32,000 nucleotides of DNA from Halomicrobium mukohataei DSM 12286 (GCF_000023965.1 NC_013202.1:1080001-1112000), one strand, 5' to 3'. Shown: positions 3 to 31,354, numbered from the stretch's first letter. Program-made: numbers and translations. Notes: generated from the sequence alone by a model not told the origin.

Positions 3-473
3 TTTCTCAGTACCGACACCGACCACCTGCTGGTCGTCTCGACGCGGACGACGGCTCGCGAGGTCGAACAGAAGCTGGAGTACTACGAGGTCGACGAGGA
101 CCGGGCGACGATCCTCGATACGCTGTCGGTCGAACGGGGCTACACGCGCCGCAAGTCCGACAACGTCCAGTACGTCTCCGCGCCGGACGACTGGGCGGCC
201 ATCGTCGAGCAGACCGAGCAGTTCCTCGCGGACCACGAGGGCAAGCGGCGGGTGACCTTCGACTCCGTGACGGAACTGATCTACTACGCCGACGAGGACC
301 AGGCCGTCGAGGCGCTCGGCCAGCTGCTCGACCTGCTCGCCGAGTACGACGCCGTCGGGCTGTTCCACCTCGCCCGCGGCGTCCACGACGACGAGACGCT
401 CGACCGCTTCCGGGAGCTGTTCGACGGCGTCGTCGAACTCGACGAGGACGGCTCGATCACCAGCCAGTTCTGA
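3..473 (+). CDS. C-terminal part of a conserved acidic haloarchaeal protein, possibly a RecA/KaiC-superfamily ATPase-like fold; the 5' end lies outside the window
   Basis: Frame 3 is open from the window edge to TGA 471-473. Manual translation gives FLSTDTDHLLVVSTRTTAREVEQKLEYYEVDEDRATILD...DEDGSITSQF. Composition is acidic and coherent. The functional call is only a resemblance. Confidence 0.7.
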   Translation, partial: FLSTDTDHLLVVSTRTTAREVEQKLEYYEVDEDRATILDTLSVERGYTRRKSDNVQYVSAPDDWAAIVEQTEQFLADHEGKRRVTFDSVTELIYYADEDQAVEALGQLLDLLAEYDAVGLFHLARGVHDDETLDRFRELFDGVVELDEDGSITSQF

Positions 474-481
474 TACGAACG

Positions 482-545
482 GTTGTAGGCGTTTACCCAG
501 TCGACCGCACGACGGCGTGCGGTCGATCTGGTAAAGACCTACAAC
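482..545. repeat. Long imperfect hairpin (about 29 bp arms), member of an intergenic hairpin repeat family
   Basis: GTTGTAGG/CCTACAAC, TTTACC/GGTAAA, CAG/CTG and TCGACCGCAC/GTGCGGTCGA pair around the loop GACGGC. The core CGACCGCACGACGGCGTGCGGTCG resembles the cores at 5469-5530 and 17381-17430. Confidence 0.7.
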
Positions 546-650
546 TTTCCGTATGAGACGGCCCGGCCGTCGCCGTCAACGCCGAACCGCGACCGCGCTC
601 GCATCGAGGAACGAACCATTAAGAGGCCAGATTTCCTTGTTGAGAGACGT

Positions 651-5457: not shown

Positions 5458-5468
5458 TATAGTAACAA

Positions 5469-5530
5469 TTGAAACGATTTACACACCGATCGCACTGCCG
5501 TCGTGCGATCGGGTGTGCATTGATTTTCAA
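5469..5530. repeat. Long imperfect hairpin, same family as 482-545, opposite orientation
   Basis: ACACACCGATCGCAC / GTGCGATCGGGTGTG arms lie around TGCCGTC, with outer TTGAAA/TTTCAA and CGAT/ATTG pairing. Its reverse complement aligns with 17381-17430, sharing TGCACACCCGATCGC. Confidence 0.7.
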
Positions 5531-5597
5531 CGGCTACTATACTGTCGGCGGTAGCGCGGACGGGAGCTTTTTGCCGGCCGGGGTTGCACTGCCAGCC

Positions 5598-7059: not shown

Positions 7060-7440
7060 CTACGCACGCTCCAGGCGACCGCGATAGCGTGACTCGGCCT
7101 CGCCGACCGGCTCGATCGCGAACCCGAGCGTCTCGTAGAACGGCCGGACCCGCTCGTCGAACGTCGCCACGAGCCGCCCACGTTCGGCCAGCGCCCGCTC
7201 GACCAGTGCCGAACCGATCCCCTGCCCGCGTCGGCGACGGCGGACGGCGACGCTGACGATCCGATCGCCGTCCAGTACGAGCGCCCCCAGCACGCGCTCG
7301 CCGTCGTCGGCGACCGCGAGCAGGGTCTCGCCGCGCCGGAGACTCGCTTTCAGCCGGGCGGGCTCGGTCTCCAGGGCCGCCCCGTCGAGGACGTTCGCGA
7401 CGGCAGCCCGATCGGCCGGCGTCGCCTCGTGGACCCGCAT
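7060..7440 (-). CDS. GNAT family N-acetyltransferase
   Basis: 126 aa with acetyl-CoA motif A: VAVRRRRRGQGIGSALVERAL. Confidence 0.85.
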   Translation of the reverse strand: MRVHEATPADRAAVANVLDGAALETEPARLKASLRRGETLLAVADDGERVLGALVLDGDRIVSVAVRRRRRGQGIGSALVERALAERGRLVATFDERVRPFYETLGFAIEPVGEAESRYRGRLERA

Positions 7441-7490
7441 CGTCTCGTACTGGCGAGCCCCGCCAGAAAGTGTTTCCCTCTCTCGGGACG

Positions 7491-7870
7491 ATCGTGTTCA
7501 GATAAGAGATCGGTGCAGGCAGTCTGAAGCACCGAAAGCCCTCGGCTCGCTCGGCGGTTCTGCGGCGGATATCCTCACTCCGTTCGGATAGTGCCGCCGC
7601 AGAACCGCCGACCGCGCCTCGCCCTTTCATCCCCCAGGATTCGGCTGTTTACCGGTCTAAACCCTGGCGGATGAAAGGGCGAGTGTAGTTGCGGGAACCC
7701 CGACGAAGTCTGCTCACGGGCGCAAAGCGCCCGTTCGCACGGCCAGAGGGACTCGGAGAGTCCCTCTCGGCAAGCACGCGAAGCGCGCGCAGCGAGTCGC
7801 GGGACCGCAACTGCACGAGGGCTTTCGGTGTCTACAACGCAGCAAATGCAGCGGCTTATCTGAACACTAC
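7491..7870 (+). mobile_element. MITE-like non-autonomous element, copy A (highly structured, no coding capacity)
   Basis: Terminal inverted repeats are GTGTTCAGATAAG (7494-7506) and CTTATCTGAACAC (7855-7867). Flanking 10-mers TCTCGGGACG (7481-7490) and CCTCGGAACG (7871-7880) match 8/10. It is homologous to 27879-28309. Nested stems: 7530-7544/7816-7830, 7552-7568/7594-7610, 7619-7638/7663-7682 and 7684-7694/7805-7815. Confidence 0.8.
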
Positions 7871-7889
7871 CCTCGGAACGGCACCACGC

Positions 7890-8090
7890 TCACCCGCCTT
7901 TGACCAGCCGGACCACGCGGACGTGGTCCGTCTCGACGGGCTGATCTTCCGGGACTGGCGTGCCGTCGACCAGGATCGAGACCGTGTGGGGGCTGAGGTC
8001 GGTCGGTGCCAGCAGGTCGGCGTAGCTGTCCCCCGCCGCGATCTCGACCTCGCGGGTCTCGCCCCCGACGATCTCGACTGTCACGCGCAT
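7890..8090 (-). CDS. samp2: Ubiquitin-like small archaeal modifier protein, SAMP2-type (66 aa, C-terminal GG)
   Basis: MRVTVEIVGGETREVEIAAGDSYADLLAPTDLSPHTVSILVDGTPVPEDQPVETDHVRVVRLVKGG. It is a beta-grasp MoaD/ThiS-like protein ending in diglycine and closely resembles Haloferax SAMP2 as I recall it. It is the 3' tail of the artefactual ORF 7890..9221. Confidence 0.88.
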   Translation of the reverse strand: MRVTVEIVGGETREVEIAAGDSYADLLAPTDLSPHTVSILVDGTPVPEDQPVETDHVRVVRLVKGG

Positions 8091-17380: not shown

Positions 17381-17430
17381 CGAATCTCACTGCACACCCG
17401 ATCGCGCCGACGTGGTGCGGTCAGTGTCGC
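17381..17430. repeat. Third member of the intergenic hairpin family (degenerate, wobble-rich stem)
   Basis: TCGAATCTCACTGCACACCCGATCGCGCCGACGTGGTGCGGTCAGTG aligns with the reverse complement of 5469-5530. GATCGCGCC/GGTGCGGTC and CACT/AGTG can still pair. Confidence 0.55.
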
Positions 17431-22196: not shown

Positions 22197-22252
22197 AGCC
22201 TAGGCCGGAATTTGAACCCGGGCTCTCGTCCTTACCAAGGACGCGCTTTACC
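22197..22252 (-). repeat. Partial duplicate of tRNA-Thr(GGU): positions from the D-loop GGTA to the 3' end; att-like direct repeat
   Basis: 55 of 56 nt are identical to 23960-24015; the single T-stem difference is CCCGG versus TCCGG. The 5' continuation cannot form an acceptor stem. Confidence 0.85.
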
Positions 22253-23607: not shown

Positions 23608-23959
23608 ATAGACGTAATACGCTGGTCTTACCAATAGTCGTTTCGGCAACACTCTATTCGCCGCGTAATCGTCGTGAATGGCCGTATCGAGGGATATTCT
23701 ATCAGTTTCCTGACTACACTTCACTCGTTCCTCTGCGAGCGCAGATTAGCGAAATCAGTGCGTCCCTGAGGGGATGCGCTCCCGGTCAACTTCGGGGCTA
23801 TCCCGCCGCAGTCTGCGGGTTGATTTGTGTGTGCTGACAGTTTGGAGGATCACTATACAGCGAGGGATACCCTGTTTAGTGAGACAAGGCTGTTTTGAAT
23901 ATGTTGTGTTCAAGACAGACAAATCCGTAAAGTGTGTACAAGGAGTGTACGGCAGAAAG

Positions 23960-24031
23960 AGCCTAGGCCGGGATTTGAACCCGGGCTCTCGTCCTTACCA
24001 AGGACGCGCTTTACCTCTAAGCTACCCAGGC
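23960..24031 (-). tRNA. tRNA-Thr (anticodon GGU)
   Basis: Manual cloverleaf: GCCTGGG-TA-GCTT-AGAGGTA-AAGC-G-CGTCC-TTGGTAA-GGACG-AGAGC-CCGGG-TTCAAAT-CCCGG-CCTAGGC-T. All stems pair, with one G-U in the acceptor. Confidence 0.9.
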
Positions 24032-24098
24032 GCGCATTCATCCGTTGTCCGGAGTTGTCTTTAGGCGTTACGATTCGGGGACGGCACGCCACTCTCTC

Positions 24099-24746
24099 TC
24101 AGTGGTCGGCCGAGGTGCGGACGCCGTCGGCGCTCGTGGCGTCGTTCGTCAGCGTCGCGAGCGTCTCGCGGACGTCCTCGTCGGCGAACGTCTCGACGGG
24201 TGGCAGCCCGTCGGTCACGAGGTCGCTGGCGTACTCACGCAGGCGTGGCGTGGGTCGGTTCCCGGCGGCGGTGACGCCGGCCACGGCGGCGAGTTCGAGC
24301 ACGTCGGCCTCGAGGTTCCGATCGAGCGTGGGGTCGTCGGTTTCGCGGCGGACGGTCTGGTCGGTACCGAACGCCCGGACCACGTCGACGGCGGCGTCGG
24401 CGGCCTCCGTTCGGGCCAGCAGGTAGAACCCACGCGAGACGAGGATGTCGGCGATGAGAACGTCCAGGTCGGCGGCGTCGCGGTCGCCGCCCGCCCAGGG
24501 GTCGTCGTGGGCGAGCGCCCGCGTCAGCCGGAGTCCCTCGTAGATCAACTGGACACCGGCGGCGCGGTCGCTGATGCCGTCGAGCTGTCCATCGCAGCCG
24601 GCGGCGCTCGCGCTGACGAGCGTGCAGACGCCGGGCGTCATCGAGGCGGCGTCGAGCCGGTCCTCGATACGGTCGCGCAGACGAGCGGGGTCGACGTCGT
24701 CGACTGCCGCCAGTGCGGCTCGTCGGACCGCAGCGGCTTCCTCCAT
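24099..24746 (-). CDS. Hypothetical helical protein; weak resemblance to polyprenyl-synthase helices without a canonical DDxxD motif
   Basis: 215 aa. GVQLIYEGLRLTRALAHDDPW...VLIADILVSRGFYLLA recalls the FARM region of trans-prenyltransferases, but the motif is degenerate and the protein is short. Confidence 0.55.
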   Translation of the reverse strand: MEEAAAVRRAALAAVDDVDPARLRDRIEDRLDAASMTPGVCTLVSASAAGCDGQLDGISDRAAGVQLIYEGLRLTRALAHDDPWAGGDRDAADLDVLIADILVSRGFYLLARTEAADAAVDVVRAFGTDQTVRRETDDPTLDRNLEADVLELAAVAGVTAAGNRPTPRLREYASDLVTDGLPPVETFADEDVRETLATLTNDATSADGVRTSADH

Positions 24747-24800
24747 TACCTTCGCCTAGCGACGGGAAGGGCAAAGACCTTTGGAAACGTCGGATCGGGC

Positions 24801-25493
24801 ATGGGGACGATACGGACCGAGCGGACGGGCGAGGTACTGGTCGTGACGATCGACCGGCCCGACAGCCGCAACGCGCTGACGGCCGACGCGCTGGCGGTGC
24901 TGCGAGATCGACTCGCGGACGCGAGCGCGCCGGTAGTCGCAGTTCGGGGCGCTGGGTCGGCGTTCTGTGCCGGCGCGGATCTGGCCACCGTCGACGCCCT
25001 CGACGGAGACGACGCGCGTTCGTTCTCGCGGCTGGGCCAGGCCGTCGCGGACGCGCTGGCTGGCTACGACGGGGCGACCGTCGCGGCCATCGACGGGCCG
25101 GCACGCGGCGGGGGCGTCGAACTCGCGCTGGCCTGTGACCTGCGGGTCTGTACGCCCCGCTCGACGTTCGCCGAGTCGGGCGTGACGCTGGGGCTGTTCG
25201 GCGCGTGGGGCGGGACCGATCGGCTGGTCGGCACCGTCGGCCGGAGCGTGGCGATGGACCTCTCGCTGTCCGGTCGCGTCGTCGACGCCGAGGAGGCACT
25301 GCGGGTCGGCCTGGTTTCGCGGATCGTCGACGATCCTCTGGCGGTCGCACACGCGGTCGCCGACAACGACGCCGGAGCGGTCCGGACGATCAAGGGGCTG
25401 CTCGCCGAGCCGGCCGACGGCGACCGCCAGTTCGAGCGGGAACGCGAGGCGTTCGCGGCCCTCGTCGAAGCGCGGGCCAAGCGCAAGGATTGA
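24801..25493 (+). CDS. Enoyl-CoA hydratase/isomerase (crotonase) family protein
   Basis: VLVVTIDRPDSRNAL, GAGSAFCAGADL, IDGPARGGGVELALACDLRV. The start is at ATG 24801. Confidence 0.88.
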   Translation: MGTIRTERTGEVLVVTIDRPDSRNALTADALAVLRDRLADASAPVVAVRGAGSAFCAGADLATVDALDGDDARSFSRLGQAVADALAGYDGATVAAIDGPARGGGVELALACDLRVCTPRSTFAESGVTLGLFGAWGGTDRLVGTVGRSVAMDLSLSGRVVDAEEALRVGLVSRIVDDPLAVAHAVADNDAGAVRTIKGLLAEPADGDRQFEREREAFAALVEARAKRKD

Positions 25494-25519
25494 AGCCGTC
25501 GCACGCGCACCACGAGACA

Positions 25520-26227
25520 ATGGTTGACTGTGAGTACTGTGACGGGTCCTTCGACAGCGAGGACGCGTACCTCGATCACCTCGGCAGCGCCCACGAGGGT
25601 GAGCTGGGGTCGATCGATCAGCGGCGGGTCGCCGAACACGACGGGAGCGACGAGAGCCCGAGCCTCTCGCTGGGGCCGGCTATCCTGATCGGTGTCGTCG
25701 GCTTCTCGATCGCGGTCGTGGTCTACGTCGTCGTCTTCATGGGCGCGGGCGGTGGTGGATCGAGTCTCCCAGACAGCGGCGATCAGGCGGTCGTCTCGCA
25801 GGTGACGACTCAGGAGTCCGAGGGGCGGACCCACGTCGACCGGGGCACGGAGCTCACCTACGAGCACATGCCGCCGACCTCCGGGCCACACTACGCCGAC
25901 TGGGCGACGGGGGGGTACTACGACGACGAGACGGCCCCGCCGCTGGGTGAGGTCGTCCACGCGCTGGAACACGGGGCGATCGTCGTCTACTACGACCCCG
26001 ACGGTATCGATCCGGACGTTCGCGAGAGCTTCCGGCAGTACGGCAATCGCTACACGGACGACTTCATGAGCTTCCTCGCGGTCCCGACGCCGGTCGAGGA
26101 CCCGGAGGCGACCTACGTCCTGACGGCCTGGACCAAGCGCCTCGACATGGACGAGTACGACGAAGAGACCATGCGGCAGTTCATGGCAGAGTACATCGGT
26201 CGCGGGCCCGAGCAGCGGGTCCGCTGA
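25520..26227 (+). CDS. DUF3105 domain protein with an N-terminal C2H2-like zinc finger and one TM helix
   Basis: MVDCEYCDGSFDSEDAYLDHLGSAH is followed by TM helix ILIGVVGFSIAVVVYVVVF, then PPTSGPHY...VHALEHGAIVVYY, typical of DUF3105. Confidence 0.75.
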   Translation: MVDCEYCDGSFDSEDAYLDHLGSAHEGELGSIDQRRVAEHDGSDESPSLSLGPAILIGVVGFSIAVVVYVVVFMGAGGGGSSLPDSGDQAVVSQVTTQESEGRTHVDRGTELTYEHMPPTSGPHYADWATGGYYDDETAPPLGEVVHALEHGAIVVYYDPDGIDPDVRESFRQYGNRYTDDFMSFLAVPTPVEDPEATYVLTAWTKRLDMDEYDEETMRQFMAEYIGRGPEQRVR

Positions 26228-26257
26228 CGCCTCGCCCGTCCGAGCCGTCACCGGCGG

Positions 26258-27091
26258 TCAGAACAGCGGGTCGGGACCCGGCGGCGCGGCGCGCTTGTGC
26301 TCGCTCCCCTCGTAGAGGGTCCTGACGTGTTCGACGGCGTCCTCGTCGACGCCGATCTCGGCGGCCGTCGCCGAGGCGGAGACGCCGCCCTCGACGTGGA
26401 GCGCGAGGATCGAATCGAGCGTCGGGTAGTCGATGCCCAGCTCCGCCTCGTCGGTCTGGTCGAGCCACATCTCGGCGCTCGCGGTCTTCTCCGCGAGGTC
26501 GTCCGGGACGCCGACGTGTGTGGCGAGCTGGCGGACCTGGCCCTTATACAGGTTCGCGATCGGGTGGCAGTCCACGGCACCGTCGCCGTACTTGGTGAAG
26601 TAGCCCACCAGCGCCTCGCTTCGGTTGCCCGTCCCGAGGACGATCGAGTCCCGGTGGTTGGCGGCGAGGTAGTTCAGTACGGCCCGACAGCGCACCCGGA
26701 GGTTGCCGACGGCGAGCTGATCGCCCTCGGCGTCGGGGTACCCGTCGAGGAAGGCGTCGGCGATCGGTTCGACCTCGATCACGTCGTACTCGATGTCCAG
26801 CAGCTCGCTGGCGACGCGCTCGGCGTCGCTCATGTTCGCCTCGCGGTTGACCTCGCTGGGCATCACCAGCCCGTAGACGTTCGCTGCGCCCAGCGCCTCG
26901 ACGGCCAGATGCGAGGTGAGCGTGCTGTCGATCCCACCGGAGAGCCCGATGATCGCCGTCTCGACGCCGGCCGCGTCGGCCTGCTCGGCGATGAAGTCGG
27001 TGATGTGGTCGCGATACGCTTCCAGTTCCGCCTCGGAGAGAGTCAGATCCAGCGGATCGTCGGCTCGCTGGACCGGTTTCGCTTCTGCCAT
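26258..27091 (-). CDS. nadE: NH3-dependent NAD+ synthetase
   Basis: 277 aa with the PP-loop GLSGGIDSTL and LGTGNRSEALVGYFTKYGDG. Confidence 0.92.
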   Translation of the reverse strand: MAEAKPVQRADDPLDLTLSEAELEAYRDHITDFIAEQADAAGVETAIIGLSGGIDSTLTSHLAVEALGAANVYGLVMPSEVNREANMSDAERVASELLDIEYDVIEVEPIADAFLDGYPDAEGDQLAVGNLRVRCRAVLNYLAANHRDSIVLGTGNRSEALVGYFTKYGDGAVDCHPIANLYKGQVRQLATHVGVPDDLAEKTASAEMWLDQTDEAELGIDYPTLDSILALHVEGGVSASATAAEIGVDEDAVEHVRTLYEGSEHKRAAPPGPDPLF

Positions 27092-27575
27092 CGTATCCCG
27101 AAGAAGGGACGCTAGCGACTAATACCCCACCGAGTCGCCCCCAGGAGTGGACGATCGGTCAGTCTCAGGTGTCGCTGCGACGTTCCTCAGTGTCGAGACT
27201 CGGCGGGTATGATATGGGCCTATGTGCAGGCGACACGTGCTTGCCGGCAGCTGTCACATTCGTCAGTGGGCATTGGATGCCCACAGACACGAATAAAATG
27301 TATCAAGTAAATCTCGAACGAGATATCCACATGTCGGGTACACTTTCTGATTGATAGATCAAGGAGTGAGCTGGCTGTAGCAAGAACTGATTACAAAGAT
27401 ATCATATATCGGCAGAGGGACACTGGAAATGAATAGTTAGAGATTTGACAGATCTACAACCTTGTTAATCATCCCGCAGTTTGGGGTGTGTCCTAGCACG
27501 GTTGAGCTGTTGATTTAGGAACAGTAGAACTGATCCCTCTCAGCTCAGTCTGACAATTGGAAGAATATCTTCTCT

Positions 27576-27830
27576 TTACGATTTCACACCAATACCAATT
27601 TGATAAAATAAAAATGGTATAAGAACTATGGAAAGTGTGAGAGAAAAAGTAACAACTGAGAGGATTATCGGGAGTTCGACGTACCAAACTGTATCGGGCA
27701 CGATTGGTCCCATTGCAAATATAATGACCACTGCGACGGCTAGGGAAACCATTCCTGCGAAGAATATCTCTAACCGGCTTGACCATGCGCTCTCTCGCAT
27801 GAGGAGATACTCTTTCGGCGGAATTTCCAT
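27576..27830 (-). CDS. Orphan small membrane protein (84 aa) in an AT-rich region
   Basis: ATG (cat 27828-27830) gives MEIPPKEYLLMRESAWSSRLEIFFAGMVSLAVAVVIIFAMGPIVPDTVWYVELPIILSVVTFSLTLSIVLIPFLFYQIG.... It is the hydrophobic 3' part of ORF 27576..28022, whose 5' part runs into the MITE. Confidence 0.5.
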   Translation of the reverse strand: MEIPPKEYLLMRESAWSSRLEIFFAGMVSLAVAVVIIFAMGPIVPDTVWYVELPIILSVVTFSLTLSIVLIPFLFYQIGIGVKS

Positions 27831-27878
27831 ATTCCACACACTAATTCGACTGTGATAAATGTGCGGGACACTCCGCAG

Positions 27879-28309
27879 GCGGTGTTCAGATAAGCAGCAG
27901 CACTGACTGACATATAGACACCGAAAGCCCTCGGCACGCTCGGCGGTTCTGTGGCGGATATCTTCACTGCGTTCGATAGTGCCGCCGCAGAACCGCCGAC
28001 CGCACCTCGCCCTTTCATCCACCAGGAATCGGCTGGTTCACCGTCTGAAACCTGGCGGATGAAAGGGCGAGTGCTGCGTGACGGCGGAGCCGTCACGTTA
28101 TAGCCGGCCGGTTCCACCGGCCGGCCCTTGCGGGAACCCCGGCGAAGTCTGCTCACGGGCGCAAAGCGCCCGTTCGCACGGCCAGAGGGACTCGGAGAGT
28201 CCCTCTCGGCAAGCACGCGGAGCGCGCGCAGCGAGCCGCGGGACCGCAACTGCACGAGGGCTTTCGGTGCCTCGACGATGCTACTCTCGATCTCTTATCT
28301 GAACACTAC
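27879..28309 (+). mobile_element. MITE-like structured element, copy B (with an extra 51-nt two-hairpin insertion)
   Basis: TIRs are at 27882-27894 and 28294-28306. A perfect 10-bp direct repeat CACTCCGCAG flanks it at 27869-27878 and 28310-28319. It has the same nested stems as copy A. The insertion at 28077-28127 forms CGTGACGG/CCGTCACG and GCCGGCCGG/CCGGCCGGC hairpins. Confidence 0.85.
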
Positions 28310-28364
28310 CACTCCGCAGCAGGTTGCAATCTTTCTGATTGGCGAGTGAATGTGGCTGCCGAAA

Positions 28365-28745
28365 TCAGTCGCTCGACTCCAGCGGCTCCACGAACTCCAG
28401 CACGTACCCCTCGGGGTCCTCGACGAAGGCGACGTAGGCGTCGGCCGGTTCGATCACGGTGGGTGCGGTGACGACGGTCGCGCCCTGCTCTGTGGCGCGC
28501 TCGACCATCGCCTCGGTGTCGTCGACGGTGAGTGCGACGTGGTCGACGTCCGCGCGGTTGGGCGCGATCGGCGTCGTGCGGTCGGGGTCGTGCCGGAGCT
28601 GCAACTCGCCGTGGTCGCCGCCGACGTAGACGTTCTCGACCCCGTCGAGCGTGAACGACCACTGTCGTTCCAGCCCCAGTTCGGTGTAGAACTCGACCGC
28701 GCGATCCATCTCCGAGACCCACAGCGCGACGTGTGCAACGTCCAT
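28365..28745 (-). CDS. VOC family protein (glyoxalase/bleomycin-resistance/dioxygenase fold)
   Basis: MDVAHVALWVSEMDRAVEFYTELGLE...VDHVALTVDD...FVEDPEGYVLEFVE. The start is at ATG (cat 28743-28745). Confidence 0.85.
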   Translation of the reverse strand: MDVAHVALWVSEMDRAVEFYTELGLERQWSFTLDGVENVYVGGDHGELQLRHDPDRTTPIAPNRADVDHVALTVDDTEAMVERATEQGATVVTAPTVIEPADAYVAFVEDPEGYVLEFVEPLESSD

Positions 28746-28796
28746 GATCGGACGTGCGCGGCCCGGTAGTTGTGTGTATCGACTCGGTAGCGCTCC

Positions 28797-28840
28797 GATA
28801 AGAGAGTGAGGGCCGAGGGCTTTCGGTGTTTGCACACCGG
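28797..28840 (+). repeat. Short relic related to the MITE (left-end GATAAGAGA fused to right inner arm CGAGGGCTTTCGGTG)
   Basis: GATAAGAGAGTGAGGGCCGAGGGCTTTCGGTGTTTGCACACCGG. The 15-mer CGAGGGCTTTCGGTG is identical to 7816-7830 and 28256-28270. GATAAGAGA equals 7501-7509. There is no intact TIR. Confidence 0.5.
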
Positions 28841-28952
28841 TATCTCGGCTGCGCATGTGAACAGGACCACCGACTCCGGCGGGCCAGTTTTCGCGGCCGG
28901 CGTGTCAGAAGCTTGCCGTTGACTACTTGGTCAGTCCCCACGACCCCCGTGT

Positions 28953-29924
28953 ATGGAGTACACGACACTCGGCTCGACCGGGATCGAGGTCTCGAAGATC
29001 TGTCTGGGCTGTATGAGCTTTGGCAGCGGCGACGAGTGGATGCTCGACCGGGACGACTCCGAGGCGCTGATCGAGCGCGCGCTCGAACTCGGGATCAACT
29101 TCTTCGACACGGCCAACGTCTACTCGACGGGCGAGAGCGAGGCGATCCTCGGCGACGTGCTCGGCGAGTACGACCGCGACGAGCAGGTCGTCGCCACGAA
29201 GGTGTTCGGCGAGATGGGCGACGATCCCAACAGGCAGGGGCTCTCGCGGAAGGCGATCGAACAGGAGCTGTCGGCCTCGCTGGACCGGCTGGGCATGGAC
29301 ACCGTCGATCTCTACCAGATCCACCGCTGGGACTACGACACGCCCATCGAGACGACGCTACGGGCGCTGGACGACGCCGTGCGGCGCGGCCAGGTGCGTC
29401 ACATCGGAGCGTCGTCGATGTGGGCCCACCAGTTCCAGCGGGCCCTGCACGTCAGCCAGCGGGAGGGGCTGGCCCGCTTCGAGACGATGCAGGACCTCTA
29501 TCACCTCACCTACCGCGAGGAGGAACGCGAGATGTATCCCGTCTGCGAGCAGTGGGACGTGGGCGTCATCCCGTGGAGCCCCCTCGGCGCGGGCTATCTG
29601 ACCCGCCCCCACGAGGCGTTCACTCGCACGACGCGGGGCGAACACGAGAAGGAGAACATCGGGCTCCCCTACGACGAGGGGCCGGGGAGTCGGGAGATCA
29701 ACGAGCGCGTTCAGGAACTGGCCGACGAGAAGGGCGTGACGATGGCCCAGATCGCGCTGGCCTGGCACTTCGAGAACGAGTACACCGACGCGCCGATCCT
29801 CGGCACGTCGAGCATCGAACACCTCGAAGCGGCCGTCGAAGCACTGGAGATCGACCTCTCGGCGTCGGAGATGGAGTACCTCGAAGAACCGTACGAGCCG
29901 GTCCCGGTGTACGGCCACGAGTGA
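28953..29924 (+). CDS. Aldo/keto reductase
   Basis: MEYTTLGSTGIEVSKICLGCMSFG..., NFFDTANVYS, DLYQIHRWD, IGASSMWA. Confidence 0.9.
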   Translation: MEYTTLGSTGIEVSKICLGCMSFGSGDEWMLDRDDSEALIERALELGINFFDTANVYSTGESEAILGDVLGEYDRDEQVVATKVFGEMGDDPNRQGLSRKAIEQELSASLDRLGMDTVDLYQIHRWDYDTPIETTLRALDDAVRRGQVRHIGASSMWAHQFQRALHVSQREGLARFETMQDLYHLTYREEEREMYPVCEQWDVGVIPWSPLGAGYLTRPHEAFTRTTRGEHEKENIGLPYDEGPGSREINERVQELADEKGVTMAQIALAWHFENEYTDAPILGTSSIEHLEAAVEALEIDLSASEMEYLEEPYEPVPVYGHE

Positions 29925-30022
29925 TACTGCCGGCTGTCGACCTGTGACCGATTTCGCCACCCGTAGCGACCCCCGCCACGCGGTAACGAACGGGGAGCGG
30001 GTCCGATACGTCACGCCAAAGC

Positions 30023-30901
30023 TCACTCGACGGCGTCCCAGCCCGGCGTCGGCGGTGCACCGTCGTCGTCCTCGATCTTGCGTGCGCAGTCGGGGTCCGG
30101 TGCCGGCTCGCCGACCGCGTCGGCGATCGTCTGCCAGCGCTCGATCGTTCGCCCGGTCCACGACGGTGCGTCCCGTGCGCGCTCGTGGTACCGCTCGTAC
30201 CAGTCGTCGCTGACGGCCCCGGTCCCGGGTGCGGAGGCAGCCGCGACGGCGACGAACTCCGCGCGGTCGGCGGCCGTCAGCTCGTCGGCGACGAGGCGAG
30301 ACACGACGCCGGAGAGGCGCTCGGGCTCGGGGTGTGCGAACAGCTTCGAACCCAGCGCGGCCGGGCCGAGCAACGGCGTAGCGCCGTCCGGCGGTTCGTC
30401 GTCCCGGAGTCGCTCGCCAGCGGCCTCGCCGGGTGCGTGCGCCTCGACGCGCTCGCACTCGGTCTCGACGGCCAGCGAGAGGTTCTCGCCGGGGTAGGCT
30501 CCACAGGTGTCCGGATACAGCTCGCCGCCGTGGAGCCGACACTGCAGGGTCACGGGATCGAGGAAGACACAGCTCTCCAGCCAGGTGGGGTCGGCGTCGA
30601 ACGGCGCGACGGGTTTGGGCGGCTTGCGAAGGCCGACGTAGAACGCCGGCCGACCGTCGATCGCGGCGACGCTGTGCCCGTCGATTCTGACGCCGTCGTC
30701 GTCGGCGAACAGGCGGGGCGTGAGGGCGTCGCCGTGACCGCGGTCGACGAACGCACGCACCTCGGCGCGGGTCAGCGGGACGAGGTTGGCGGTCTCGTCG
30801 AGCGGCTGGCGACTGCCGCGCCGCTCGTGATCGATGTCGGCGTCGGTCAGGGGCCGCCAGTCGATACAGCAGCCGGCACACCCCTCGCAGTCGACTCTCA
30901 T
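30023..30901 (-). CDS. YkgJ-family cysteine-cluster (CxxCxxCC) protein with an acidic C-terminal extension
   Basis: MRVDCEGCAGCCIDWRP... and a later C..L......C......YP..C..YP pattern, typical of UPF0153/YkgJ zinc/iron-chelating domains. Confidence 0.7.
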   Translation of the reverse strand: MRVDCEGCAGCCIDWRPLTDADIDHERRGSRQPLDETANLVPLTRAEVRAFVDRGHGDALTPRLFADDDGVRIDGHSVAAIDGRPAFYVGLRKPPKPVAPFDADPTWLESCVFLDPVTLQCRLHGGELYPDTCGAYPGENLSLAVETECERVEAHAPGEAAGERLRDDEPPDGATPLLGPAALGSKLFAHPEPERLSGVVSRLVADELTAADRAEFVAVAAASAPGTGAVSDDWYERYHERARDAPSWTGRTIERWQTIADAVGEPAPDPDCARKIEDDDGAPPTPGWDAVE

Positions 30902-30949
30902 GTTCGACCGTTCGGGCGTGCGGGAGAAAAGGCCCCGTCCCGAGACGCC

Positions 30950-31354
30950 CTAGGCGAACTCGCCCGTCGTGTCTGTCGAGGAGACCATCCCGACGTAGTC
31001 GCCGTGATCGTCCATCACCGGGAGGTGTTTGATGCCGAAGTTGGTCATCATGGCCGCGGCCTCGTTGAGTTCCGTCGTCGTCTCGACGCGCTCGACGGGA
31101 GAGGTCATCACGTCCGCGACTCGGGTTTCCGTGAGGTCCGCGCCCTCGGCGACGGCGTGGACCACGTCGGTCGTCGTGACGATCCCGGCGTCCGCTCCCG
31201 GGACGAAGAGCCCGTTGACGTTCGATTCGCGCATCTGCTCGGCGACGGCCCGGACGGTCGCGTTCGGGCTCGTCGTCTCCAGCGGTGTCGACATCACGTC
31301 CTCGACGAGGACAGTGTCGGAACTCATACCACGACTGTCGTGGCCAACTGTCAT
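30950..31354 (-). CDS. CBS domain pair protein
   Basis: VEDVMSTPLETTSPNATVRAVAEQM..., VADVMTSPVERVETTTELNEAAAMMTNFGIKHLPVMDD. A GGAGG lies about 9 nt upstream of the ATG at 31354. An alternative start is at 31327. Confidence 0.8.
   Translation of the reverse strand: MTVGHDSRGMSSDTVLVEDVMSTPLETTSPNATVRAVAEQMRESNVNGLFVPGADAGIVTTTDVVHAVAEGADLTETRVADVMTSPVERVETTTELNEAAAMMTNFGIKHLPVMDDHGDYVGMVSSTDTTGEFA

Follow-up and report, generated by a model that had tools for sequence, protein, structure and literature searches.

Introduction

Insertion sequences (IS) of the IS6 family measure 700-890 bp and are characterized by 8-bp repeats, GG tips and a TGTT motif (PMC7986276). Two of them, ISHmu2 and ISHmu9, are elements of Halomicrobium mukohataei, ISHmu2 being listed with GG/GA tips (PMC6807381). 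ISfinder holds two IS6 MITEs, the haloarchaeal MITEHarch3 (strain DL31) and the bacterial MITEBth2, of 227 and 336 bp (PMC6807381, PMC7986276). Excerpts from the accounts of Haloquadratum and Halobacterium (Dyall-Smith et al. 2011, PMC3119063; Pfeiffer et al. 2019, PMC7002104) describe MITEs that have only a few terminal bases in common with their parent IS and whose copies drive inversions, as well as a preference of mobile elements for other mobile elements and the entry of small palindromic repeats into palindromes. The MITEs, PATEs and SMRs of these excerpts are assigned to parent IS groups other than that of the element studied here; an IS6 (ISH14-group) MITE does not appear in the Halobacterium MITE table (PMC7002104), and an inverting or cross-genus conserved multi-hairpin core was not found in the excerpted descriptions of those MITEs (PMC3119063, PMC7002104).

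The window analysed here is a stretch of 32,000 nt from H. mukohataei DSM 12286 (NC_013202.1:1080001-1112000). The original prediction, made from this sequence, singled out a strongly structured non-coding element bounded by terminal inverted repeats (TIRs) and proposed for it a functional structured RNA, or else a DNA cruciform, carried by a mobile element. This element, copy A in the following, resembles the ISH29-type 697-bp IS6 elements (ISH14, ISH15, ISHarch12-14, ISHmu2, ISHmu9) in its 17-bp TIRs (GG[TC][AG]GTGTTCAGATAAG), in the 8-bp target-site duplication (TSD) and in a common host group that includes the genus Halomicrobium, and differs from them in having no transposase gene, a length of ~380 instead of ~700 nt and a non-homologous interior. 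Compared by description, at the level of ends and host, it agrees with MITEHarch3 in being non-autonomous, in its IS6-family ends and in residing in a halophilic archaeon, the DL31 host of the latter being of a different lineage. The explanation that we favour, and consider on the whole probable, is that of an IS6 MITE whose interior is a cassette of nested, flippable DNA palindromes.

Terminal Repeats and Relationship to IS6 Elements

The 13-nt TIRs of the original prediction were recovered as exact 13-mers, GTGTTCAGATAAG, at 7494-7506 (+) and 7855-7867 (-), and the pair occurs again at 27882/28294; in the window, five matches to this 13-mer are found at up to two mismatches, against 0.15 expected. 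The repeats extend to 17 nt, however, so that the true ends lie 4 nt further out than proposed (GATC.../...TACC) and form a 17-bp repeat of IS6 type, and the near-identical flanking 10-mers that had been taken as a sign of transposition reduce to a duplicated target of 8 bp, not 10 (Table 1). The two ends are asymmetric, the TIR being followed by AGATCG or AGAGAG at the X end and by C[CA][GA]C at the Y end. The subterminal segments of ~24 nt sort into subfamilies, of which X1-X4 diverge in the X segment, while TIR and core are common to all. The claim that the interior cannot encode a transposase proved right: 382 nt are too short, the sole open reading frames comprise 55-60 aa and are frame-inconsistent, and indels between copies (176-524 nt) destroy any common reading frame.

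Table 1. Parts of copy A, and the other copies present in the window (positions counted from the first nucleotide of the window).
Feature	Position	Strand	Remarks
Element A (MITE)	7490-7871		382 nt
Left 8-bp TSD	7482-7489	no strand	CTCGGGAC; 7/8 positions equal to right TSD
Right 8-bp TSD	7872-7879	no strand	CTCGGAAC
X-end TIR	7490-7506	+	GATC+GTGTTCAGATAAG, IS6-type 17-mer; tip GA, not GG
X subterminal segment	7507-7529	+	AGATCGGTGCAGGCAGTCTGAAG; differs among subfamilies
S arm	7530-7544	+	CACCGAAAGCCCTCG; 15-bp inverted repeat bounding the core; flip/flop boundary inside the repeat
Hairpin H1	7545-7617	+	17-bp stem, arms 7552-7568 / 7594-7610
H1, upper part			1x3 internal loop (A / GTG), apical helix TATCC/GGATA, 11-nt loop
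Hairpin H2	7618-7683	+	CTCGCCCTTTCATCC..CCAGG / CCTGG..GGATGAAAGGGCGAG; arms conserved in sequence, loop variable
Domain D3	7684-7815	+	~12-bp closing stem 7684-7695 / 7805-7815 around H5, H6, H7
Hairpin H5 (in D3)	7710-7742	+	
Hairpin H6 (in D3)	7743-7770	+	
Hairpin H7 (in D3)	7770-7813	+	
S' arm	7816-7830	+	CGAGGGCTTTCGGTG
Y subterminal segment	7831-7854	+	variable
Y-end TIR	7855-7871	-	CTTATCTGAACAC+TACC, equal to GGTAGTGTTCAGATAAG on the - strand
Copy B with TSDs	27870-28318		element 27878-28310; core, relative to its own X/Y ends, opposite ('flop') to that of copy A; extra hairpins H3 and H4
Copy B TSD	27870-27877 and 28311-28318		ACTCCGCA, perfect 8 bp
Relic copy C with TSDs	28778-28876		element 28786-28868; TSD ATCGACTC/ACCGACTC, 7/8

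Scanning viral contigs with GGTAGTGTTCAGATAAG led to a 697-bp IS on contig L125 that has the same 17-bp ends, an 8-bp TSD (GGTTTGAC) and a single 211-aa ORF matching PF13610 (DDE_Tnp_IS240) with an E value of 4.6e-8. It shares 81% identity with ISH29, an IS on pNRC200 of Halobacterium salinarum whose ends are GGTAGTGTTCAGATAAGC and GGCAGTGTTCAGATAAGG and whose TSD is GGCCTATC. Relatives of the L125 IS are present on 129 haloarchaeal plasmids, many of them annotated as IS6-family transposase, and include one in Halomicrobium urmianum. The 17-mer GG[TC][AG]GTGTTCAGATAAG is identical in ISH29 and in the L125 IS and nearly so in the H. urmianum IS, and its 13-nt core as present in copy A equals the ends of the first two and the right end of the third. 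The TIR of the element is of the 15-20-bp class with a GG tip and a TGTT motif, as in IS6 elements, the published traits of which agree throughout (PMC7986276, PMC6807381); the X tip of copy A is GA, and since this tip departs from GG, copy A may no longer move. The membership of the element in the IS6-family MITEs appears to us very likely.

An autonomous partner of the kind that the original prediction asked for exists in other haloarchaea and within the genus, in H. urmianum and, as ISHmu2/ISHmu9, in H. mukohataei (PMC6807381). An IS6 transposase gene was found neither in the window nor in the 176 kb searched from H. katesii, so the partner in this genome is inferred from congeners. A match of the TIR to a known IS had also been named as a sign of an ordinary deletion derivative; the match holds, to ISH29 of the IS6 family, but the derivation does not, because the TIR alone is common to element and IS. 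Comparison of element and IS gave matches of just 13-14 nt, the longest being 23 nt with 87% identity, and the interior is without homology to the IS. Such sharing limited to the TIR agrees with what the excerpted account tells of Haloquadratum MITEs (Dyall-Smith et al. 2011, PMC3119063).

As a separate observation, the right end of the IS contains a subterminal TTGAAAGGTGAGGCGG to which the H2 arm corresponds at 14 of 15 positions, a similarity of E~1 that is to be taken as a lead only.

Copies in the Window and in Halomicrobium katesii

Three copies are present in the window, namely A, B and an 83-nt relic, C, which consists of decayed TIRs, an X4-type end, one S' arm and a Y end, its palindromic core having been wholly deleted. 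When the 17-mer CACCGAAAGCCCTCGGC was scanned against one genome per species, at least 120 loci were matched; among the matches listed, ~22 are in Halomicrobium katesii DSM 19301 and others in Natrinema, Natrialba, Halosimplex and Halobacteriales MAGs, the remainder being chance matches in unrelated bacteria. Positions 24087-31306 of the window correspond to one H. katesii block at 98.0-99.1% identity. H. katesii yielded at least 16 copies with TIRs at both ends, 176-524 nt long, and these were compared together with the two full window copies as a set of 18.

Perfect 8/8 TSDs flank eight of these copies and 7/8 TSDs another four, giving 12/18 at 7/8 or better, where the chance of such a match is ~4e-4 per copy. 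The consensus of the ends over the 18 copies is GGNN+GTGTTCAGATAAG. These duplications and the many copies bear out the proposal of a transposed, non-autonomous, TIR-bounded element. Copies A and B do not delimit a composite transposon, because each is flanked by its own intact 8-bp duplication. The sole orthologous site available, that of copy B and H. katesii L042 (3001-3312), is occupied in both genomes, L042 being without a 134-nt block.

BLASTN of the element gave no match among 72,556 plasmids or 50,697 phage records, and the hairpin cassette was not found on haloarchaeal megaplasmids, where IS6 is common. A literature search yielded no paper giving the TIR sequence or describing the element family.

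Architecture and Inversion of the Interior Cassette

All the stems named in the original prediction, that is, the 15-bp stem, the 17-bp hairpin, H2 and the stem closing three hairpins, were confirmed, and they compose a palindromic cassette between S and S' that is not IS-derived. The cassette is found in two orientations. Seven copies (A, L037, L045, L053, L061, L106, L115) show the flip order S-H1-H2-D3-S', and its exact inverse, the flop order, is displayed by six (B, L020, L042, L049, L055, L084). The inversion affects the core with respect to the ends: L084 is colinear with copy A in its ends and inverted in its core, and L084 and L061 are equal in ends and length with cores that are the inverse of each other. 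The switch point maps within the 15-bp S repeat.

Module content varies around a constant H1, which was found in every full copy examined and in metagenomes; the short forms L036 and L113 retain H1 only, and L072 carries it on both sides. Copies A and B carry H5 and H6 at 100% identity, and none of the 16 H. katesii copies has either hairpin. H5 is also matched in other genera (L085, L087) and is followed in L087 by an H6-like hairpin. Copies A and B show 97-100% identity in D3, as against 88-93% in H1 and H2, which suggests that they exchanged sequence by gene conversion. Relic C shows that the core can also be deleted as a unit, and the single S arm remaining there is exactly the outcome expected if a long palindrome is excised.

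Some copies harbour nested ~84-nt foldbacks of two kinds, which sit within the H2 loop in L053 and beside S' in L005/L097; both kinds also occur standalone, including at window positions 473-554 and 5458-5541. On the other hand, free-standing repeats of the H1-H7 modules were not found in Halomicrobium, where these modules are present only within element copies.

Folding, Covariation and Strand Symmetry

The intense structure ascribed to the element is real, since both strands of 7490-7871 fold far beyond shuffled controls. Minimum free energies (MFE) for a 375-nt stretch of element A are -234 (+) and -239.5 (-) kcal/mol, with values for shuffles of -148 +/- 5 and -153 +/- 6 kcal/mol, respectively (z -16.4 and -15.4). 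DNA parameters give an MFE of -135 versus -76 for shuffles (z -12.5).

The H1 alignment comprises 19 distinct sequences, taken from Halomicrobium and from MAGs of Halobacteriales (three) and Halosimplex (one). Paired cells amount to 95.1%, compared with 81% in shuffles and ~40% with slid partners, and double-sided changes are seen in 17 of the 28 pairs, a figure reached by 0 of 500 shuffles. Random substitutions that break the stems, given in the original prediction as the sign against a functional structure, are not what the copies show, and compensatory changes across subfamilies and genera indicate that the stems are not an accident of a single copy. The apical helix of H1 also covaries, with CG replaced by UA in five sequences, and its asymmetric A/GTG (1x3) internal loop is conserved across genera. 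In H2 the arms are kept as sequence around a free loop, with covariation at 1 of 21 pairs and a single indel that one arm has in register with the other, and S is, like H2, conserved in sequence and not merely in pairing.

No strand stands out as the sense one. Watson-Crick pairs occupy 484 of the 528 H1 cells (~92%), the proportion of G-U among all pairs is ~3-5% and both strands have similar MFE. Wobble pairs in H1 comprise G-U at five positions and A-C at five, that is, five per strand without bias, and many of the pair changes are GC<->CG swaps with no wobble intermediate. The plus-strand functional RNA originally envisaged is not singled out, the strands folding equally and having no G-U bias and the core being present in both orientations. 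Strand symmetry and flip/flop are what double-stranded palindromes would exhibit if their arms were kept matched, be it by templated correction or by selection on a DNA hairpin, and sit poorly with an RNA gene having a defined sense strand; as far as sequence comparison can tell, a DNA-level palindrome or cruciform would fit the structure better than a discrete RNA.

Proposed Mobilization and Upkeep of the Palindromes

According to the favoured explanation, an IS6 DDE transposase (PF13610) acting in trans would bind the ends of the element and move it by the copy-in (cointegrate) route of IS6, and the resulting cointegrate would be resolved by the host, through homologous recombination of the two copies with each other. 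The perfection of the stems would be owed to their nature as DNA palindromes, in which one arm would be corrected from its partner by template switching or repair. Selection on the element itself possibly contributes to stem upkeep, with the putative benefit of favouring end synapsis or short copies that recombine well enough to resolve cointegrates. Flip/flop likely reflects recombination or gene conversion across the 15-bp inverted repeat. If the interior has a function, it probably exerts it as DNA, and palindromization together with nested insertion, inversion and gene conversion would have produced its architecture.

The same explanation has its weak points. Arm-to-arm correction predicts symmetry, but it predicts neither the 1x3 loop of H1 nor its covarying apical helix, and these features count against it. 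Together with the sequence conservation of H2 and S and the reuse of the hairpin unit in a second repeat, described below, they suggest that something recognizes the hairpins, a feature that the favoured explanation takes as optional.

Relatives in MAGs and Hypersaline Metagenomes

Relatives in MAGs keep the plan of S, hairpins and S', with diverged IS6-like ends (GTGTTCGGAGAAG, GTGTCGTGACAAG, GTGTTCGGGTATG). In metagenomes, the H1 apical motif matched at least 120 loci; among the matches listed, 96 have full flanks, and an S-like motif is found 5' of H1 in ~88 of these 96. Two architectures are distinguished among the matches listed. The first is the palindromic IS6 MITE, with 11 distinct copies among those matches, near-exact inverted repeats, a TSD of at least 7/8 in 6/11, and the end combinations X..Y, Y..X, X..X and Y..Y. 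The second is an oriented repeat of ~260-300 nt, with ~38 loci among the matches listed, which is devoid of TIRs, of S' and of the H2 3' arm. Its S-like motif, H1 and H2 arm form one long imperfect hairpin, followed by more covarying hairpins and by a conserved 3' end (AGCGCGCGCCAC). Compensatory changes occur in 24 of its 58 predicted pairs, H1 is flipped in some loci, and Rfam contains no match to it.

The presence of the unit S - H1 - H2 arm in the oriented repeat makes the MITE core look like a head-to-head doubling of that unit, and in L072 both sides still carry an H1. The core could plausibly have originated by snap-back duplication of one IS6 end together with an adjacent copy of the unit, an event that would also account for the residual similarity of the X and Y segments.

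A functional hairpin module is possible because H1 and its flanking motifs recur in these oriented, TIR-less repeats, and the asymmetric features of H1, as well as the use of the unit by a second repeat family, leave room for a module that is recognized by a protein. That S-H1-H2-arm acts as such a module in folded DNA or RNA, bound by a protein and recruited at least twice (by IS6 MITEs and by the oriented repeats), nonetheless seems to us rather unlikely. If true, it would add to the mobile DNA of haloarchaea a class of conserved hairpin cargo that is new, and the hairpins might render short copies recombinogenic, as resolution of IS6-type cointegrates requires.

A more specific version would have the S-H1-H2 arm recognized on single-stranded DNA or as a cruciform by an HUH-type transposase or a host factor, with the IS6 ends as a second vehicle. 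Recognition of hairpins by HUH-type enzymes is known from the ends of IS200/IS605 elements and their PATE derivatives. The frequency of the H1 apical motif and of its S-like companion in metagenomes, the covarying oriented repeat and the asymmetric internal loop kept across genera would all be in line with it, and recognition at the DNA level would tolerate the flips of H1 and core that place the hairpin on the other strand. It is also favoured by the many IS605-type elements of haloarchaea, the PATEs with near-terminal palindromes and the MITEs nested with them, as reported in the excerpted account of Haloquadratum (PMC3119063). Against it, a conserved ORF or an HUH, TnpA or TnpB gene linked to the oriented repeat was not found within 3.2 kb, the Halomicrobium modules lie only inside IS6-bounded copies, and TSDs and TIRs fully explain the movement of the window element; we judge this version improbable. 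If the hairpin unit were nevertheless recognized by a protein, it would constitute a shared cis-acting module of haloarchaeal mobile elements, one that could explain how very short IS6 derivatives finish their recombination-dependent transposition. The window element itself is no IS200/IS605-type element or PATE; these have no TIRs and no TSD, subterminal hairpins and linked TnpA/TnpB, whereas it has TIRs and a TSD, and a linked ORF was not found even for the related oriented repeat.

Gene Neighbourhood and Possible RNA Roles

Copy A has as its neighbours a GNAT acetyltransferase gene (7060-7440, -) and a SAMP2 gene (7890-8090, -) and lies, TSD counted, ~10 nt downstream of the stop codon of the latter; copy B is 47 nt downstream of a glyoxalase gene (28365-28748, -). 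All 18 copies are intergenic. L084, L106 and relic C adjoin gene starts, and the H1 strand runs with or against the adjacent gene depending on the copy.

The same IS6 MITE might carry a cassette that acts as a cis RNA on read-through transcripts, as a 3'-end stabilizer, a terminator/insulator or a processing site, roles that have been proposed for the bacterial REP, ERIC, Correia and BOX elements. Copies A and B, directly downstream of stop codons, would be well placed for this, the stems covary, and a palindrome gives the same helices from either transcribed strand, so that flip/flop and either insertion orientation would be tolerated. Nevertheless, an intergenic position is expected of any surviving insertion, the copies beside gene starts do not suit such roles, and for a selected RNA the scarcity of G-U pairs is extreme. 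Archaeal termination depends, furthermore, on T-tracts, and the element has none. A role of this kind is doubtful.

The least probable of the readings considered, to which we give very little credence, is the one preferred in the original prediction, in which the core is a discrete structured ncRNA gene with its own promoter, transported as cargo of the MITE: the very stable fold, the covariation of H1, a U-G pair that persists on the H1 'sense' strand in 13/19 sequences and the conservation of H1, S and H2 across genera speak for it, and they are opposed by equally foldable strands with wobble 5 versus 5, by a core inverted relative to the ends in about half of the copies and in mixed orientation relative to neighbouring genes, by module content that varies even between orthologous copies, and by the lack of an Rfam match and of a conserved TATA-like box. 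Regarding the last two points, Rfam 15 at gathering score contains no match to the element, a tRNA being the only match in the window, and a permissive search returned chance miRNA-like hairpin matches of 15-22 bits versus cut-offs of 42-137, in agreement with the original statement that no known RNA family is involved. As to an archaeal promoter inside the element, a single TTTA-type stretch was seen, which falls within the variable H2 loop and is not kept from copy to copy. We found no evidence for an RNA gene in the element, and the observations are explicable without a separate RNA product.

Two RNA motifs considered for H1 were likewise discarded. A K-turn in its internal loop would need the GA/AG rule, which is obeyed on neither strand, and a tRNA-like T-loop is ruled out, ARAGORN finding only tRNA-Thr at 23959-24031.

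Parallels with Other Repeats and Use in Genome Comparison

The bacterial BOX, ERIC, Correia/NEMIS, RUP and REPIN repeats are short, multi-copy, intergenic, strongly folding and modular with variable module numbers, and the element is like them in all these traits. BOX/ERIC-type repeats depend on other or unknown mobilizing enzymes, several of them acting as RNA within mRNAs, and we know of no description in them of a core that flips between fixed asymmetric ends. Flip/flop isomers are known for the terminal hairpins of parvoviruses/AAV and for segments bounded by inverted repeats in the 2-micron plasmid and in plastid genomes. The cassette and the AAV-type hairpin are both stem-enclosed branched palindromes found in two orientations; the palindrome in the window is, however, internal to a chromosomal transposon and is not a replication-priming telomere.

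As regards their meaning, the data tie an unannotated, strongly folded Halomicrobium repeat to a known mechanism, which would be trans-mobilization by ISH29-type IS6 transposases, in a family whose ISfinder set includes one haloarchaeal MITE only (PMC6807381, PMC7986276). They also call for caution, as extreme foldability and covariation are no proof of an RNA gene when flipping, self-correcting palindromic DNA mimics both.

Finally, the copies mark sites of inversion and gene conversion and are useful for comparing and assembling these genomes. The copies without TSDs come in sets with swapped flanks, L049/L055 and L005/L097/L113. L049 and L055 are 194 kb apart and inverted, and their swapped flanks are compatible either with recombination between copies or with intramolecular replicative inversion of the IS6 type.

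Copies of the MITE and their surroundings

In the second full copy of the IS6-family MITE, copy B, the core (the palindromic interior bounded by the 15-bp inverted repeat S/S') displays an orientation relative to the ends opposite to that in copy A, and two extra hairpins, H3 and H4, are found. A stretch of 134 nt of this copy (28075-28208) is missing from its orthologue in the close relative Halomicrobium katesii. The relic copy C has lost its core and its inverted repeats are decayed, but 18 nt that include the S' arm are perfectly preserved. It sits in the divergent promoter region of the glyoxalase (28365-28748, - strand) and aldo/keto reductase (28953-29924, + strand) genes. Copy A, for its part, is directly adjoined by the gene for the ubiquitin-like protein SAMP2.

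Coordinates of the features described in this section (window positions unless a locus is named)
Feature	Position	Strand	Remarks
Copy B, second full MITE copy	27870-28318		perfect 8-bp duplication
Copy C, 83-nt relic MITE copy	28778-28876		between glyoxalase and aldo/keto reductase genes
SAMP2 gene	7890-8090	-	66 aa, ends in GG; Pfam PF21965, E 6e-30
84-nt foldback element, TATAGTA... ends	5458-5541		directly after stop codon
82-nt foldback element, TACGAACGGTTGTAGG...CCTACAACTTTCCGTA	473-554		3-bp TGA repeat on flanks
tRNA-Thr(GGT) gene and partial duplicate	23959-24031 (gene) and 22197-22252 (duplicate)	- (gene)	
Oriented dispersed repeat, ~260-300 nt (examples)	L129 9800-10170; L193 3300-3650; L229 1700-2050; L203 6200-6480		metagenome loci

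Flanking 8-mers were found to be exchanged among the MITE copies of H. katesii (block L049 7364-7728 with L055 5418-5782, as well as blocks L005, L097 and L113). Such swapping implies that either a ~194-kb inversion and other rearrangements would have occurred between copies, or the draft scaffolds would be misjoined.

Insertion of small hairpin blocks

On the Halomicrobium urmianum plasmid NZ_CP084092.1, the transposase gene of one IS6 copy is interrupted at IS positions ~346-404 by a 58-nt insertion. This insertion is made up of two GC-rich hairpins, with a 7-bp direct repeat (ACGGCGT) on its flanks, and shows that the genus Halomicrobium does acquire insertions of small hairpin blocks.

Two small foldback elements of the window were found both standing alone and nested within the MITE. 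The 84-nt element has 90-98% identical copies, which stand alone in five H. katesii blocks and lie within the IS6 MITE in L005 and L097; a partial relative is located at window 17382-17427. This element is probably a separate MITE family. Regarding the 82-nt element, its flanking repeat lies where the ORF upstream of it has its stop codon. Copies of it (97-99% identical) likewise stand alone in five H. katesii blocks, and one in block L053 is inserted in the H2 loop of the MITE with a TCA duplication. Its TNA target suggests a partner of IS5 type.

A related repeat in metagenomes

The oriented metagenome repeat shares with the MITE core an S-like segment, H1 and the arm of H2, and exhibits additional covarying hairpins. 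It has no terminal inverted repeats, linked ORF or Rfam match, and is often followed by a second repeat ending in T-tracts.

Strain-variable and duplicated patches

The region from window ~27200 to 27880 is strain-variable: H. katesii contains at ~27200 a low-GC insertion of ~890 bp (L042 3995-4885, in the block orthologous to the copy B region) that is absent from the window, and 27500-27880, immediately left of copy B, is AT-rich. Finally, the partial duplicate of the tRNA-Thr(GGT) gene (56 nt, 98% identical, 1.76 kb from the gene) looks as if an att site had been duplicated on either side of a small remnant of integrated DNA.
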